Virus genome (UHGV): UHGV-1841366
Source: a virus
Reading direction: 5' to 3' (one strand)
Length of the DNA: 54,360 nt
Part shown: positions 3,456-54,360 of the stretch, in pieces
Numbering within the stretch: the stretch's first letter is position 1
Layout of the letters: each line of letters opens with the position of its first letter
Translations under genes and position numbers: made by a program
Notes under the pieces: generated by a model
The model's database searches: none
What the model was told of the DNA's origin: nothing
The model's input: only the letters and a program-made list of their open reading frames with translations

Positions 3456-3535
3456 ATACCCGATAATAATTTGTTTTCTACCTTATCTGATTTGTGAAAA
3501 TGATTTCACTGAAGCAACTTAATAAGGAAAAAATC

Positions 3536-3910
3536 ATGGGACTTGATATCTACATCGAGACGCAGCCAAAAAACGATCTGAATAACGATACATCCAGATG
3601 GCAGGTTGGCTACTTCCGCAAGTTCAATGCGCTTGTATCGTGGGTGGAGAATAACGTTGGTATGGTTGAGAACTGTGAACTTGTGGAGCTTAACCGTGAG
3701 CATTTGCTGAAGCTGAAAGCAGACCTGGATTGTCTCAATAAAGAAAATTGCAGTGAAATAATGCCCACAATGGAAGGATTCTTTTTCGGCAGTCAGGAGT
3801 ACGACGACTTCTACTGGAGAGACGTGGATGAACTGAGAGAACTCACGGAACAGCTGATAGAGAATCACGATTTCGACAATAACAGACTGACGTTCTGCGC
3901 CTGGTGGTAA
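3536..3910 (+). CDS. hypothetical protein
   Basis: In-frame ATG (MGLDIYIE) of ORF 3494..3910 preceded by AAGGAAAAAA; the start at 3494 has no ribosome-binding site. Confidence 0.5.
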   Translation: MGLDIYIETQPKNDLNNDTSRWQVGYFRKFNALVSWVENNVGMVENCELVELNREHLLKLKADLDCLNKENCSEIMPTMEGFFFGSQEYDDFYWRDVDELRELTEQLIENHDFDNNRLTFCAWW

Positions 3911-4104: not shown

Positions 4105-4221
4105 TTCTGGTGACAGGATTACTCCTGTCAGGGCTGTTTCTTTTGTTACAGACGCTATCATGAAGACAAAAAGAGAAGGAAGATCACTGATAGGTCTGGG
4201 AGTTACTTCAGTTTTAAAAAT

Positions 4222-4278
4222 GCCTGCTTCCGTATATATAAATAATAAGTAACTTAATAAATATATACGGAAGCAGGC
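4222..4278. repeat. long AT-rich-loop hairpin, copy A of three
   Basis: GCCTGCTTCCGTATATAT ... ATATATACGGAAGCAGGC; near-identical copies at 19067-19122 and 47623-47669. Confidence 0.7.
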
Positions 4279-4530
4279 ACTGTTAAGACTCCAGAAGTGA
4301 GCAAAAATCAACCTAAAAAGACACTGAACTCACCAGAATAAACTTAACCAGCCAGTACAGGCGCTGAAGTCTTCCGTAGCAGGCATCAAAGGGAATTTCG
4401 TTAAGGTACTTCAGCATAGGGTGGATGGATATCAAACCGTATGTGTATTGCCTCTCGTTTGATGCCTCCTGAAGCACCTTTAAAAGTTTTTTAAAAGCGC
4501 TACAATGACTATCAGATAAGAGGAGGTTTT

Positions 4531-40788: not shown

Positions 40789-43323
40789 ATGTGGTACAGG
40801 GAAGGTACTATCACATTTACACAGGGTAGCAATACTCTGGTTGGGGCAGGGACAGCCTGGAACGTAACCGCTAATGGTGTGTTGCCGGGTATGATCGTCG
40901 TTGGCCCCGATAATAAACTGTATGAGATCAAGCGCGTAACCAGTGACACGAATATTGTTCTCTCAGAACCTTATACCGGTGAAACTCAGTCTGAAGTTCC
41001 GTGCCGAATCATTACGACCTATGAGGGCGACTTAACGCAGTTTAGCGCACGCTTTACTGCACTAATGTCGCGTATGTCGGCTGATTCCAAGTCCATGCGT
41101 AGTTGGCTGACTGCCGTGGATGAAATCACAATTGAACGTGAAGATGGTACGGAATTAACCATAAAATCCCTTACTCAGATCGTTAATGAGCACAACAAAA
41201 ACGTAGAGTGGTATAAAAATAACACTGATGAAATTGATTCCGCTGGCACCTATGCGCGTGAGGCCGCGAGTAGCGCGACAACTGCTGCGCAAAACGCTGA
41301 GCGCGTTGAACAGATCGCGCAAAATATTGCTAACAGTATAAGTACGGCCCAGCAGGCTGCCACAGATGCTGCAAATAGTGCCGGTGCCGCGAAAACGTCA
41401 GAAACGAATGCGGCAGCGTCACAACAATCAGCAGCCACTTCTGCATCCACCGCGACCACGAAAGCGTCAGAAGCAGCCTCCTTAGCCAGGGATGCGTCGG
41501 CTTCAAAAGAGGCGGCAAAATCATCAGAAGCGAACGCGAAAGCGTCGGAAACCAGTGCCGAATCCTCAAAAACGGCAGCCGCATCGTCAGCCAGTTCGGC
41601 AGCGTCATCGGCATCGTCTGCGTCGGCTTCAAAAGATGAAGCGACTAAACAGGCGTCAGCCGCAAAAGATAGTGCTATGACTGCATCCTCGAAAGCAACA
41701 GAGGCGACAGGCAGTGCAACGGCTGCCTCTCAGAGCAAAACTGCTGCTGAATCCGCTGCGACCCGTGCGGAAGCTGCTGCTGCTCGTGCTGAAGAGATTG
41801 CCGGTGCAGTTGCGATGGAAGACGCAAGCCTTACAACTAAAGGTGTTGTGAAACTTAGCAGTGCGACCAACAGCACTTCAGAGTCACTGGCTGCAACCCC
41901 AAAAGCGGTAAAAGCTGCATATGACCTGGCTGACGGGAAATACACTGCGCAGGATGCAACGACAACCCAGAAAGGGATAATCCAGCTAAGTAGCGCCATC
42001 AATGACGAATCTGAAACGCTTGCTGCAACGCCAAAAGCGGTAAAAGTCGCCTATGACAATGCCGAAAACCGCCTGCAGAAAGATCAGAATGGCGCTGATA
42101 TCCCTGACAAGAACGCATTCAGGGAAAGTCTTGGGCTGGGGGATGCCGCCACCAAAAATATCGGTACTACAGCCGGCACCGTAGCGGCAGGAAACGACTC
42201 CAGACTGGTTAACGCACTGCAAAAATCCACTTCAGCCCTGGCCGTGGACCTGAATACACTGGGGAGTCTGGAAGTCCAGGGAACTTATTATCAGCCAGCG
42301 GATAAAGGGGCAACAGCTGCGCATCATTACCCGGTGCTCCGGTCCGGGACATTGCAGGTTCTGCCTGGTGTCTGGGGAGGCTGCCAACAGGAATATACGA
42401 GCTGGAATCCACCGAGAAAATTTGTGAGAACACTGACAGGCTATTTCAAAGGTAATGGCCCGTGGTCGCCGTGGGTGGAGGTGGCGTTTACCGACAGTAC
42501 AGTGGCTGTTGCGACCGCAGCGACAAAATTGCAGACGACCAGAAGAGTTGGTGGTGTGGATTTTGACGGGACATCAGATATCAGCCTCCCCGGAGTGGAT
42601 GCGCCAGGCGATCAGGATACGACAGGTAATGCGGCTACTGCGACCAAATTGCAGACGCCAGTGAATATTAACGGTACAGCGTTTGATGGTAGCCACGATA
42701 TCACGATCCGGGATGAAGGTGCATTTCAGAAGCCTGCGCTCTTTATACATTCCTCTGTAGATTTGAACACGCTAGGTGGTCCAGGTAGCGAAGGTTTTTA
42801 TTTTCAGAAATACGGGAGTGTGGCGACAGTTGATCATCATTACCCAACCAACAGACCAGGCACGCTGACTGTACTGCGTGGTGGATTTGACGGATGCCAG
42901 CAGGAATATTTTAGTGTTAATCCTCCAAGGAAATTTTTCAGGGCATTAACAGGAGCCTGGAACGGACAGGATGGCCCATGGTCAGACTGGTTTGAGATTC
43001 AGACTCTGGGAGGTGGAAGTGGAGGTACGCAGGTTTTTGGAACCGAATATCAAAATAAATCATCAGAACGCGGTCCGGGTGTTACATACACTAATAGTCG
43101 ATCGTATCCGATTATGGTGATCATTGATGGATACTACGGAGGTGGTGACGGTTTTCATCTTTTTATAAACGATGAAATATTGATATCCCCATCTACATCT
43201 TCAGGACAAAATGACGACCAATTTCAGTTTACTTTCATCGTTCCGGCAGGCGCAACGTACATGATCTTTGAAAAAACTTTCGGTACGAATTTCCGTATTC
43301 ACACCTGGTTGGAGTTTTGTTAA
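40789..43323 (+). CDS. side tail fibre protein
   Basis: 844 aa; phage tail-fibre repeat pattern (KGIIQLSSAINDESETLAATPKAVKVAYD, twice), long Ala/Ser-rich low-complexity region, internally duplicated C-terminal blocks. Confidence 0.7.
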   Translation: MWYREGTITFTQGSNTLVGAGTAWNVTANGVLPGMIVVGPDNKLYEIKRVTSDTNIVLSEPYTGETQSEVPCRIITTYEGDLTQFSARFTALMSRMSADSKSMRSWLTAVDEITIEREDGTELTIKSLTQIVNEHNKNVEWYKNNTDEIDSAGTYAREAASSATTAAQNAERVEQIAQNIANSISTAQQAATDAANSAGAAKTSETNAAASQQSAATSASTATTKASEAASLARDASASKEAAKSSEANAKASETSAESSKTAAASSASSAASSASSASASKDEATKQASAAKDSAMTASSKATEATGSATAASQSKTAAESAATRAEAAAARAEEIAGAVAMEDASLTTKGVVKLSSATNSTSESLAATPKAVKAAYDLADGKYTAQDATTTQKGIIQLSSAINDESETLAATPKAVKVAYDNAENRLQKDQNGADIPDKNAFRESLGLGDAATKNIGTTAGTVAAGNDSRLVNALQKSTSALAVDLNTLGSLEVQGTYYQPADKGATAAHHYPVLRSGTLQVLPGVWGGCQQEYTSWNPPRKFVRTLTGYFKGNGPWSPWVEVAFTDSTVAVATAATKLQTTRRVGGVDFDGTSDISLPGVDAPGDQDTTGNAATATKLQTPVNINGTAFDGSHDITIRDEGAFQKPALFIHSSVDLNTLGGPGSEGFYFQKYGSVATVDHHYPTNRPGTLTVLRGGFDGCQQEYFSVNPPRKFFRALTGAWNGQDGPWSDWFEIQTLGGGSGGTQVFGTEYQNKSSERGPGVTYTNSRSYPIMVIIDGYYGGGDGFHLFINDEILISPSTSSGQNDDQFQFTFIVPAGATYMIFEKTFGTNFRIHTWLEFC

Positions 43324-52900: not shown

Positions 52901-53053
52901 ATGATTCCATACATCTCATTAGCTTTTATGGCGGGCTTCCTTATCGGCTTCGGCATCTGTCGTGACTTAATTAAGCAGGAACTTAAAACCAAAACACTGT
53001 GCATCGGAAAGCGTGTGTATCGAGTAGTTCATGAAACAAAGGTTAGAAAATGA
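52901..53053 (+). CDS. hypothetical small membrane protein (50 aa)
   Basis: Not in the ORF track; CAGGAGTG ribosome-binding site; hydrophobic N-terminus; stop overlaps the next start. Confidence 0.4.
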   Translation: MIPYISLAFMAGFLIGFGICRDLIKQELKTKTLCIGKRVYRVVHETKVRK

Positions 53054-53340
53054 GCAATTTAACTTCTTGGGAATGGTGGTTGGTCACCTATTTCTTAGCG
53101 GCCGGAGTCGCATTCGCCTTTTACGTAGGTCAGTTAGTCGTAAAACTGCTGCTGATGAAATTTGCCAGTCATAAACGTATCGATGATGGTCTGTGGCGTC
53201 TTGGCACCCTGGTGGAAACTCGCTACGGGCAACTTAAGGAGAACGAAACCATTACTATCCAAGCGAAACGATTCACTGCCACCATCACAAGAACACCTGA
53301 TCGTAGAGTGGCCTTGATCAAAAAAGTCACAACCGAATAA
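53050..53340 (+). CDS. hypothetical membrane protein
   Basis: ORF track, 96 aa; N-terminal hydrophobic helix (WWLVTYFLAAGVAFAFYVGQLVV). Confidence 0.45.
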   Translation: MSNLTSWEWWLVTYFLAAGVAFAFYVGQLVVKLLLMKFASHKRIDDGLWRLGTLVETRYGQLKENETITIQAKRFTATITRTPDRRVALIKKVTTE

Positions 53341-53349
53341 AAACACGAC

Positions 53350-53372
53350 GATAAGTATTTACTTACCTATCC
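53350..53372. promoter_or_regulatory. GATAAGTATTTACTTACCTATCC motif
   Basis: Member of the TAAGTA/TACCTA motif family at the start of the long non-coding stretch before the tRNAs. Confidence 0.4.
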
Positions 53373-53577
53373 TTTGTGTATAAGATGACTTTGTTTTCGT
53401 TGAGACGCGACTGTTTGAACTTAAATACAAGTGCAAACGAAGAAGTCTATCTGGCAGTAGCCTAATAAGCCAAACACCAGCGAGGTCAGTTTCCAGCCTC
53501 GTTACCGAAATGGAACACACTGAGCGAGTGTGATTGCAGAACGCAGGAGGGAACATGAGTGTTCCCTCCGATGAAGT

Positions 53578-53649
53578 AACAGGATGGGCGGTTGGTATTT
53601 CAACTCCATATGACTCCCGGATTCTTAGCCTCTGACCGCCCATCCTGTT
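53578..53649. repeat. 15-bp perfect inverted repeat enclosing a 42-nt spacer
   Basis: AACAGGATGGGCGGT (53578-53592) / ACCGCCCATCCTGTT (53635-53649), followed by a T-rich run; preceded by a 9-bp-stem hairpin at 53547-53570. Confidence 0.6.
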
Positions 53650-53727
53650 ACGTCATTTTGTTCAATTATGTCGTTTATACTGGGTTAAAAAGCGGCGACG
53701 TAGCCCGGCTGGTATGGTTAGCCAGCA

Positions 53728-53849
53728 CACAACGTTGAGGCCATTACATTTTTATCAATTCTAAGGTTCTGTTCACAGAGATACCGGCGAGCGTTGATAT
53801 GTAACATGTTGGGCAAACATTCAATCGGAGTAGTGGCCTCAACGTTGTG
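53728..53849. repeat. 16-bp perfect inverted repeat enclosing a ~90-nt spacer
   Basis: CACAACGTTGAGGCCA (53728-53743) / TGGCCTCAACGTTGTG (53834-53849). Confidence 0.6.
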
Positions 53850-54113
53850 AAGACAGGATAGTTGTGTAGGTTTAACCACTGTTGCCATTGGTGCCTGTTT
53901 TCACAACAAATGATTCCATACATCACATTGTATAAATTATAAAGTAGGTGCTGTCCTCAGAAACATCATCTACTTAAAGATTTAGCCTTCTATTGAGCGA
54001 AGTCGAAAGCGTCTGGCACTAACGTAAAGTGCAAGTAGCGGTGCGTTTCCTGGCAGAAACTAACACCGCCGCGATTGGCACTGTTGAGTAATAAATACTG
54101 TCAGTGCTGAATT

Positions 54114-54188
54114 GATGGTGTAGCTCAGCGGCAGAGCAGTTGGCTGTTAACCAACTGGTCGGTGGTTCGAATCCACCCACCATCGCCA
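54114..54188 (+). tRNA. tRNA-Asn (anticodon GTT)
   Basis: Hand-folded cloverleaf: acceptor GATGGTG/CACCATC, D-stem GCTC/GAGC, anticodon stem GTTGG/CCAAC with loop CTGTTAA, T-arm GGTGG-TTCGAAT-CCACC, discriminator G, encoded CCA; 75 nt. Confidence 0.8.
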
Positions 54189-54193
54189 ATTTA

Positions 54194-54280
54194 GGGGAGT
54201 TAGTCCGTAGGGGTAGCGGGGTAGACTGTAAATCTACTGTCATTGCGACTCGGGTGGTTCGACTCCATCACTCCCCACCA
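54194..54280 (+). tRNA. tRNA-Tyr (anticodon GTA), long variable arm
   Basis: Acceptor GGGGAGT/ACTCCCC, anticodon stem GTAGA/TCTAC with loop CTGTAAA, 15-nt variable arm, T-loop TTCGACT, encoded CCA; 87 nt. Confidence 0.75.
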
Positions 54281-54284
54281 AATT

Positions 54285-54360
54285 GCCGGTTTAGCTCAGT
54301 TGGTAGAGCAGTCGCTTTGTAAGCGAATGGCCAGCGGTTCAAGTCCGTTAACCGGCACCA
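54285..54360 (+). tRNA. tRNA-Thr (anticodon TGT)
   Basis: Acceptor GCCGGTT/AACCGGC, D-arm TAGCTCAGTTGGTAGAGC, anticodon loop TTTGTAA, T-loop TTCAAGT, encoded CCA; 76 nt fits standard numbering; ends exactly at the window edge. Confidence 0.7.

Follow-up and report, generated by a model that had tools for sequence, protein, structure and literature searches.

A probable tmRNA-derived message-domain RNA without a recognizable tRNA-like domain in SSU5-like phage-plasmids and unrelated enterobacterial phages

The virus genome UHGV-1841366, analyzed here as a window of 54,360 nucleotides (nt), is an SSU5-like phage-plasmid. Directly ahead of its tRNA cluster lies a noncoding interval (positions 53341 to 54113) that, in our view very probably, encodes a phage-borne RNA derived from transfer-messenger RNA (tmRNA; SsrA) and consisting of a message domain without a tRNA-like domain. 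Trans-translation is the main bacterial ribosome-rescue and quality-control pathway, and several phages depend on it. The RNA described here represents a new architecture among tmRNA variants, and the mechanism that we propose for it is unusual, plausible, and testable: the RNA might anneal to the tmRNA of the host and supply a replacement tag template. A preliminary description of this DNA had flagged hairpins that lie downstream of the core and are the most variable, partly dispensable parts of the element; it missed the tag frame, the resume context, helix 5, and the pseudoknots (53393 to 53545), as well as the antisense 5' segment.

Tag frame and tmRNA-type folds of the core

The core contains a 10-codon reading frame (Table 1) that specifies ANEEVYLAVA, compared with ANDENYALAA for the tag of Escherichia coli tmRNA. 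It has neither a start codon nor a Shine-Dalgarno sequence, the frame upstream of it is not conserved, and indels of 1 to 2 nt among relatives break any longer open reading frame (ORF) through the tag. We surveyed the family by two pattern scans of IMG/VR, one anchored on the tag and the other on the downstream pseudoknot only, which together with database matches yielded 133 unique cores. Each of the 23 tag variants found in these cores was 10 codons long. They included ANDNVFLAVA in phages KPS64 and Moogle and ANEEMYLAVA in HK620 and Carvaje, all without a start codon, as well as ANDDVVLMAA, ANDDLMLMAA, ANDNYALAAA, ANDSEVLMAA, and ANDTEFKAAA. The pseudoknot-anchored scan, which is unbiased for the tag, revealed a 10-codon tag frame wherever upstream sequence was recovered, except in two chance matches.

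The tag showed the conservation pattern of a coding sequence. At codons 3, 4, and 10, the entropy of the third position was far above that of the first and second positions. The Leu7 codon was CTG or TTG, Ala10 used all four codons, and TAA, TAG, or TGA stop codons were found at the same place across the family. Moreover, the nucleotides preceding the frame were constrained: A was invariant at positions -4 and -3 of the 133 cores, -6 was A in 130, and -5 was U in 119 and C in 14. This A(-6) U/C(-5) A(-4) context corresponds to A84-U85-A86 of E. coli tmRNA, in which U85 and A86 set the reading frame (PMC2481249). Furthermore, when applied to the homolog in phage Moogle, ARAGORN reported a tmRNA "Tag peptide" with a "Resume consensus". 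The fixed length, the synonymous third positions, the context, and the disruptive upstream indels together argue for a frame that is under protein-level selection and yet unreachable by normal initiation. We read it as the signature of a tmRNA message domain.

Two further ideas were rejected. The interval does not encode a conserved protein, since Escherichia phage Cyrano has no coding sequence (CDS) there, stop-free stretches in relatives vary from 65 to 97 amino acids (aa), and the indels are not multiples of three. The idea that GUAGUUUUCUGAGUC in phiEcoM-GJ1 tracks a host tag "DSENY" was dropped because the host is E. coli; a 15-mer scan of genome contigs returned random matches only.

The structures around and after the frame also follow the tmRNA plan and covary. 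In the helix-5-like hairpin, one pair of the outer stem varied among the 103 non-SSU5 cores (GC61/AU40, with counts of cores after each pair), and the rest was 100% paired. In the same cores, stem 1 of the pseudoknot PK2 retained three covarying pairs in 103/103 (CG55/UA48, GC62/AU40, and AU86/GC15), two further pairs in 101/103, and a sixth in 88/103. Stem 2 of PK2 was intact at three positions in 103/103 and at a fourth in 102/103, with exchanges GC81/AU22 and AU87/GC15. The PK3-equivalent has a first stem that is 100% paired in the other types (CG81/UA12/GC10) and a second stem that is swapped wholesale among them (GCCC/GGGC, CCCUGA/UCAGGG, and GGCGGGAG/CUCCCGCC); in the SSU5 type, a second stem is possible and weak. 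Candidate cis helices resembling PK1 (AGUUUU/AGAAACU and CUUUG/CAAAG) were invariant, with no clear compensation, and the SSU5 type lacks 16 nt of this PK1-candidate region.

The covariance-model search that the preliminary description had proposed yielded one subthreshold match. It was to beta_tmRNA, at 53414 to 53516 (E = 9e-4 in a local search; 19.6 bits against a gathering score of 84), was the only non-tRNA Rfam hint in the region, and falls on the message part. In relatives, RF00023 remained below threshold at 11 to 15 bits, and matches to tmRNA models were likewise confined to the message part.

The element is widespread. The 773-bp interval is 96 to 98% identical to sequences in Cyrano, CMS-2020a, and about 190 E. 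coli plasmids, and it is recognizably kept in SSU5 and in elements of Salmonella, Enterobacter, Citrobacter, Klebsiella, and the Yersinia pestis pMT1 type. A sensitive blastn search with 53381 to 53535 as the query detected homologs in unrelated phages: in noncoding DNA of Felix O1-like myoviruses, within their tRNA arrays; in the P22-like phages HK620 and HK633, between pR'/qut and the late terminator; and in noncoding DNA of the Klebsiella siphovirus Carvaje. Further carriers of the core are phiEcoM-GJ1-like phages of E. coli, Yersinia, Erwinia, and Pantoea. It is thus kept across at least five unrelated phage groups, and it often sits among tRNA genes. Among 5426 complete E. coli genomes, 350 (about 6%) carry the element, at 141 chromosomal and 219 plasmid places, and it is annotated in none of the 350; the Cyrano record has no annotation of the interval either.

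In HK620 (L004/L318; 15560 to 16267), the element lies in the leader between pR' and the terminator, the counterpart of the short constitutive late leader transcript of lambda. The pR' promoter of lambda is constitutive. By analogy, the lambdoid element could be made in lysogens without Q and be read through during lytic growth.

None of four full tag strings occurs in the searchable literature, from which subscription-only articles are excluded, and the same literature held no paper on the tag sequences or on a tmRNA-like phage RNA of this kind. The sole related mention that we found is the genome announcement of phage Moogle, in which an ssrA gene was identified by ARAGORN.

The 5' domain and a possible template swap

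The 5' motifs GUUUUCGU and GCGACU are reverse-complementary to the region of host tmRNA that surrounds its resume codon (nt 82 to 104), and GTTTTCGT (53393 to 53400) is the reverse complement of ssrA 97 to 104 in E. coli K-12. RNAduplex paired GUUUUCGUUG (53393 to 53402) with nt 95 to 104 of E. coli SsrA and GCGACUGUUU (53407 to 53416) with nt 82 to 91, which include U85, A86, and the resume-codon bases G90 and C91. Within the 5' domain of the 133 cores, it is GTTTTCG and GCGACT that vary little or not at all; GCGACU pairs with host AGUCGC (-4 to +2), a sequence that the phage RNA itself lacks.

The similarity is most extensive in lambdoid type 2, which reads AGTTTTCGTCACGTTAGCGAC-----TTTGCGGACTTTTTA beside the reverse complement of ssrA 68 to 105, AGTTTTCGT--CGTTTGCGACTATTTTTTGCGG-CTTTTTA. 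This antisense alignment scored 36, a value reached in 0/2000 shuffles, and the Felix, lambdoid-3, and L078 types likewise gave 0/2000. Altogether, nine 5' domains were tested: four gave 0/2000, two gave 1/2000 and 3/2000, and three of the SSU5 type were not significant. Moreover, the host resume region was matched better than the RNA's own resume region in 90/90 unique members (typically 20 to 29 versus 10 to 13). With the window sequence, RNAduplex on SsrA 81 to 105 gave -26.3 kcal/mol, or about -10.8 kcal/mol net after opening costs of 5.1 (host) and 10.4 (phage RNA), and few stretches of SsrA are as accessible as the target. By complementarity, the 5' domain is antisense to host tmRNA.

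A putative sigma-70 promoter would start the RNA at this domain (Table 1). Both of its hexamers were invariant in 16 diverged SSU5-type sequences, and the spacer varied. TTGACA-17-TAAGAT and TTGACA-17-TAGATT are equally spaced from GTTTTCG in Felix-type phages and one lambdoid subtype, and conserved promoters in three lineages place the RNA start within a few nt of the invariant GUUUUCG. The candidate promoter of the window scored below the threshold of a simple promoter scan.

In the mechanism that we propose, positions 53358 to 54113 would form one transcription unit, giving a structured RNA of about 720 nt that runs on into the tRNA cluster. The 5' 150 nt would serve as a message module comprising the resume context, the ANEEVYLAVA frame, helix 5, and the pseudoknots. 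Its extreme 5' end (GUUUUCGUUG...GCGACUGUUU), antisense to host tmRNA where the latter is single-stranded between PK1 and helix 5, would anneal to host SsrA and sequester U85, A86, and the host resume codon. The phage resume codon would then be offered 16 nt past the duplex, beside host PK1; in five independent types, the linker from the duplex end to this codon measures 16 to 18 nt. A ribosome rescued by host Ala-tmRNA and SmpB would resume on the phage template, and the tag specified by the phage would be appended. We infer annealing in vivo, template swapping, and processing at tRNA-Asn from these features. The annealing model is the most economical one, since there is no initiation on the frame and no phage tRNA-like domain, and since the 5' end fits the start of the host template. 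We nevertheless advance annealing to SsrA and the writing of a virus-chosen tag by host Ala-tmRNA/SmpB only tentatively, at somewhat less than an even chance.

Several points count against this interpretation. Its support consists of sequence and predicted RNA structure rather than a transcript, an interaction, or a peptide. In the window, the two 10-bp segments were not significant against shuffles (z = -0.2 for RNAduplex energy; 537/2000 for alignment), so the antisense case for the SSU5 type leans on homology with the other types. RNAduplex energy discriminates poorly here when set against mononucleotide shuffles, since SsrA is rich in A and pairs readily with U-rich shuffles. Part of the antisense signal could reflect PK1-like pairing in cis, which is conceivable because the RNA's own 3' strand is homologous to that of the host; a UUAUG/CAUAA variant looks compensatory in cis. 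Furthermore, the scheme needs the ribosome to load a template tethered by the duplex alone, the benefit of swapping to a similar and probably still degradable tag is not evident, and annealing does not account for the roughly 560 nt of conserved structure that the SSU5 type has in addition.

The complementarity could instead mean that the RNA is a pure antisense inhibitor or sponge of host trans-translation, one that masks the host resume codon or brings about the decay of SsrA; the tag-like frame would then be an untranslated vestige or a decoy for SmpB or S1. Antisense pairing to the accessible SsrA stretch 82 to 104 and the absence of a tRNA-like domain are what this explanation has in its favor. 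However, the tag is under protein-level selection, with 10 fixed codons, synonymous third positions, and three stop codons used at one place, and the frame-setting -6 to -4 context is kept. A decoy would need none of these features, and we consider such a role unlikely.

The coding signature implies that the frame is translated, yet no tRNA-like domain was found, which could also point to direct loading: the RNA would enter the empty mRNA channel of a stalled ribosome, alone or with SmpB or another factor, GCA would be read by ordinary Ala-tRNA, and the 5' domain would serve a cis fold or regulation. We know of no precedent for direct template loading. It also leaves unexplained why the 5' domain matches host SsrA over its own RNA and why the resume context is of the SmpB type, and we regard it as highly unlikely.

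The search for a tRNA-like domain and the 3' part of the element

The message-domain RNA has no recognizable tRNA-like domain. ARAGORN detected no tRNA or tmRNA ahead of 54114, in agreement with the preliminary description, which had noted that nothing in the stretch folds as a tRNA cloverleaf; with Rfam RF00005, too, there was no cloverleaf in 53341 to 54113. An Rfam E-value scan of the whole 54-kb window gave no match to a tRNA-like domain. None of the tmRNA models reached its gathering score in the window or in the relatives tested, and RF04321, at a subthreshold 20 to 30 bits in relatives, drew on unrelated tRNA 3' halves. ARAGORN found no tRNA-like domain in 125/127 family loci, and its calls in the two remaining, Moogle-like loci were artifacts. 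The complete 38.3-kb HK620 genome contained zero tRNA, zero tmRNA, and no acceptor-like Rfam match. A two-piece layout with an upstream acceptor piece was not found in the window, where the CDS extends to 53340 and the candidate promoter follows directly. Since promoters in three lineages start the RNA near GUUUUCG, there is no 5' acceptor strand.

Individual candidates were examined and rejected. The "permuted tmRNA" that ARAGORN called in Moogle has its 5' domain inside a tRNA-Lys gene, and three tRNA genes intervene. The spurious acceptor piece of this call derives from about 3480 to 3545 of Moogle (L006), where a T-arm and ACCCTTC-G-CCA are followed 4 nt later by their complement GAAGGGT and a D-arm-like GTGTAATGGCAGCAC; either the layout resembles that of a permuted tRNA, or two tandem tRNA copies have half decayed here. 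By eye, no acceptor/T-arm geometry was seen in the I1 loop, the I2 insert, or the D-arm-like GCUGG..GGU.A..CCAGC hairpin. An acceptor stem with G3-U70 around the lambdoid core, formed by the repeated UGCUCUUUCC/GGUAAGAGCA strands, was discarded because three lineages start at GUUUUCG without such a strand; the CACAAC/GUUGUG extension, moreover, favors local hairpins over such a stem.

Three short matches to ssrA in the same sense were also noted: GATGGGCGGTTGG (53583 to 53595) resembles PK1 nt 50 to 62 at 12/13 positions, TTCAACTCC (53599 to 53607, in the I1 loop) equals the E. coli T-loop 9-mer at nt 341 to 349, and TAAAAAGC (53686 to 53693) equals nt 68 to 75. Each by itself is nonsignificant; SSU5-type relatives show no variation in the blocks that contain the first and the third.

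Still, the RNA might be a self-sufficient tmRNA whose tRNA-like domain in cis is noncanonical, unrecognized, or processed, in a new permutation or two-piece form, with the long-hairpin modules downstream or adjacent tRNA-like elements as candidates. A precedent exists in two-piece tmRNAs, the core frequently lies amid tRNAs, and some lambdoid and Carvaje modules hold a T-arm-like GGTTCGAnTCC beside a long acceptor-like stem. However, the strands of the modules are ordered as in an ordinary tRNA, which would make the message part a 5' leader, to be removed by RNase P. No G3-U70 was seen in the registers inspected by eye, the inserts are hypervariable and often lack a T-arm (HK620, Felix-type, and the window), and I2 is deleted in L090. 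The whole HK620 genome is without a tRNA- or tmRNA-like acceptor, and the Moogle call borrows part of a tRNA-Lys gene as its 5' domain. Such an arrangement appears rather unlikely to us.

The RNA as a whole is highly structured. The minimum free energy of 53391 to 54113 was -255.3 kcal/mol, compared with -200.9 +/- 7.5 kcal/mol for dinucleotide shuffles (z = -7.3; 0/20 as good). This value and the covarying repeats bear out the structured noncoding stretch before the tRNA cluster given in the preliminary description, whose suggestion of a structured small RNA was right in kind: the structure is conserved, covaries, and belongs to the + strand RNA. Its three inverted repeats are all present, with some corrections. 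The first, given as 9 bp at 53547 to 53570, is the perfect 10-bp hairpin I5 with a 4-nt loop at 53546 to 53569. The second (I1) has the perfect 15-bp core at 53578 to 53649 with 42 nt enclosed; the T-run after it is not conserved and reads TTTCC in relatives. The third (I2) has its perfect 16-bp core enclosing 90 nt, within 20-nt arms at 53728 to 53849.

A comparative alignment of 53 unique SSU5-type relatives, the kind of check for compensatory changes that had been recommended, showed that I5 and I2 stay 100% paired through compensatory and G-U changes. I5 was 100% paired (51/52 at one position), with compensatory changes at 5/10 positions; it is a variable module and is deleted in L113. I2 was compensatory at four pairs (GC38/AU14, CG35/UG13/UA4, CG32/UG20, and GC30/AU20), is precisely deleted in L090, and is the positional counterpart of the lambdoid CACAAC-GGUAAGAGCA...UGCUCUUUCC-GUUGUG module. 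I3 covaries as well (GAAGACAGG/CCUGUUUUC versus GGCCACGG/CGUGGCC). Since the many G-U pairs would turn into A-C mismatches on the opposite strand or in a cruciform formed by DNA, selection acts on the + strand RNA, and I5, I2, and I3 are RNA structures of this strand. In I1, the arms hardly change: three pairs go from G-C to G-U, one pair shows GC21/AU6, and an A-G mismatch is constant; the loop varies in sequence and keeps a small UGG/CCA hairpin and UCCCGG. The block at 53668 to 53726 is highly conserved, and the stems of its PK4-like fold are invariant or G-U, so they are backed by conservation only. In nearly all SSU5-type loci, tRNA-Asn follows about 670 to 690 nt past the tag, and RNase P cleavage at 54114 would set the 3' end of the upstream RNA. 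I5, I1, the PK4-like fold, I2, I3, and the terminal hairpins probably shape stability or processing.

The long perfect inverted repeats, the 15-nt direct repeat around a block of about 1 kb, and the shuffling, insertion, and deletion of modules between phages would suit a DNA recombination or packaging site, a terminator, or a functionless relic, such as a decaying captured fragment in the leader of a tRNA operon. A recombination or packaging site had also been among the candidates of the preliminary description; it found no support, since the G-U-tolerant covariation points to RNA-level selection on the + strand and not to DNA. Furthermore, the core is kept in at least five unrelated phage groups and in 6% of complete E. 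coli genomes. I1 with its T-run does not have the form of an intrinsic terminator (22-bp stem, 42-nt loop, and TTTCC in relatives), and a terminator scan found none on the + strand within the region. We judge this the least probable of the explanations considered.

Other repeats and folds were observed beside these structures. A long-hairpin module with hypervariable inserts, CACAAC-GGTAAG(A/G)GCAT ... ATGC(T/C)CTT(T/A)CC-GTTGTG, recurs just after tRNA-Asn in the SSU5-type loci L090, L107, L110, L008, and L013 and in the lambdoid loci L004, L005, L010, L015, L021, and L035. Tandem copies of it surround the tmRNA-like core and lie between tRNAs, and some inserts have a T-arm-like GGTTCGAnTCC. 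The modules look like tRNA-like punctuation or processing elements, or decayed tRNAs, shuffled between phages. The direct repeat, ATGATTCCATACATC, lies at 52901 to 52915 and 53910 to 53924. The first copy is at the start of a 50-aa ORF (MIPYISLAF...) with a Shine-Dalgarno sequence; the second has no Shine-Dalgarno sequence and an early stop. Both copies were about 1.0 kb apart in 10/10 SSU5-type loci checked, diverged lineages included; between them lie two small ORFs, the candidate promoter, and the RNA as far as I3. The pair could be a cassette recombination boundary or a shared binding site. The upstream neighbor of the interval is a 96-aa ORF (53050 to 53340).

Elsewhere in the window, 85 nt at 4208 to 4292 matched microRNA-precursor covariance models on both strands (E about 2e-3), which suggests a long near-perfect palindrome or hairpin. 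On the - strand, 41567 to 41785 gave a subthreshold match to Rfam isrG with the full model aligned (32.5 bits against a gathering score of 100; E = 5.7e-5); isrG is an island-encoded, Hfq-binding small RNA of Salmonella.

Table 1. Positions of predicted RNA features, the candidate promoter, and the adjoining tRNA genes in the window
Feature	Positions	Strand	Details
Predicted sigma-70 promoter	53358-53386	+	TTTACT 53358-53363, 17-nt spacer, TAAGAT 53381-53386; predicted start about G53393
5' domain antisense to host tmRNA	53393-53416	+	GUUUUCGUUG and GCGACUGUUU, complementary to E. coli SsrA
A/U-rich linker, 16 nt	53417-53432	+	Ends in resume context ACAAGU (-6 to -1)
tmRNA-type tag frame	53433-53468	+	GCA AAC GAA GAA GTC TAT CTG GCA GTA GCC TAA TAA; ANEEVYLAVA and two stops
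Helix-5-like hairpin	53451-53480	+	CUGG 53451-53454/CCAG 53477-53480; encloses tag end and stops
Pseudoknot PK2	53481-53515	+	Stem 1, CGAGG 53481-53485/CCUCG 53497-53501; stem 2, loop UUCCA 53491-53495/UGGAA 53511-53515
PK3-equivalent	53516-53545	+	Hairpin CACACU 53516-53521/AGUGUG 53527-53532, then AUUGCAGAACGCAGG
Hairpin I5	53546-53569	+	Arms 53546-53555/53560-53569, 10 bp, 4-nt loop; variable insertion module
Hairpin I1	53571-53656	+	Arms 53571-53592/53635-53656, 22 nt, 95%, 42-nt loop
PK4-like fold	53668-53726	+	AUGUCG 53668-53673/CGACGU 53696-53701; GGGUUA 53682-53687/UAGCCC 53701-53706
Hairpin after PK4-like fold	53708-53726	+	GCUGG 53708-53712/CCAGC 53722-53726; one compensatory pair, GC49/AU4
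Hairpin I2	53728-53849	+	Arms 53728-53747/53830-53849, 20 nt, 95%, 82 nt between
Hairpin I3	53844-53907	+	Arms 53844-53857/53894-53907; shares GUUGUG (53844-53849) with I2
Terminal hairpin 1	54016-54032	+	GCACU/AGUGC, loop AACGUAA; compensatory CG42/UA8, AU43/GC8
Terminal hairpin 2	54077-54108	+	GGCACUG/CAGUGCU, ends 5 nt before tRNA-Asn; replaced in other lineages by different complementary sequences
tRNA-Asn, tRNA-Tyr, tRNA-Thr	54114-54360	+	

Significance and relation to known systems

If the proposed mechanism is true, this RNA would provide the first example in nature of a tmRNA message domain that acts in trans, and the first case of trans-translation being reprogrammed by a virus: half a tmRNA, carried by enterobacterial phages of at least five unrelated lineages, would parasitize the tmRNA of the host. 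Phages may thereby steer which tag, and hence which fate, rescued proteins receive, and nature may be able to divide the tRNA and mRNA functions of tmRNA between separate molecules. In about 6% of sequenced E. coli, and with phage-plasmids of the SSU5, pMT1, and pHCM2 types in Salmonella, Klebsiella, and Yersinia, infection or lysogeny might go along with tag-swapped proteomes. The system would also be a natural one for testing resume-codon selection. For annotation, it would be a new RNA gene family, one missed by ARAGORN, Rfam, and the PGAP annotation of RefSeq genomes.

The closest relative in design is SsrA of the E. coli type (RF00023). Shared features are a frame without a start codon that opens with GCA AAC GA, a hydrophobic xAA/AVA C terminus, stops within the helix-5 hairpin, the A-U-A resume context, and H-type pseudoknots downstream. 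The phage tags are also gammaproteobacterial in style (ANDENYALAA in E. coli; ANEEVYLAVA, ANDNYALAAA, and ANDDVVLMAA in phages). Unlike SsrA, the phage RNA has no acceptor stem with G3-U70, no T-arm, and no CCA, and it reaches no Rfam gathering score. It carries instead a 5' segment antisense to a bona fide tmRNA, is borne by phages under its own predicted promoter or in a pR' leader, and forms a fusion with variable hairpin modules and tRNAs.

In the two-piece tmRNAs of alpha- and betaproteobacteria and cyanobacteria (RF01849 to RF01851 and RF04321), function is likewise spread over two base-paired RNA chains, and the best Rfam match of the window was to the message region of beta_tmRNA. There, however, both pieces come from one gene, pair via acceptor and P2 helices, and have the CCA acceptor piece upstream, whereas the phage RNA has no acceptor piece, and its proposed partner is an intact host tmRNA paired at the message region.

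Large or stable noncoding RNAs next to phage tRNA clusters are known from the T4 species 1 and 2 RNAs, GOLLD, and ROOL. The RNA described here resembles them as a structured, unannotated RNA that, as judged from its position, is cotranscribed with phage tRNAs and probably processed by tRNA-maturation enzymes. There was no match at threshold to GOLLD, ROOL, or any other Rfam family in the stretch, and to our knowledge none of these RNAs carries a tag reading frame.

Trans-acting small RNAs, including prophage-encoded ones, similarly use a short invariant 5'-terminal seed against accessible single-stranded host RNA. The difference is that the target here would be a noncoding RNA template rather than an mRNA and that the regulator also holds the replacement template.

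Finally, tmRNA-derived genes are already known in phages. A 2014 census found phage ssrA only in mycobacteriophages, in Bacillus phage G, and in DS6A, whose gene consists of the tRNA-like domain only; DS6A shows that one half of a tmRNA, which may interfere with trans-translation in the host, can be phage-borne (PMC4131195). The mycobacteriophage Bxz1 group and phage G have complete tmRNAs and DS6A has the tRNA half only, whereas the RNA described here would be the mirror image of the latter, the message half only.

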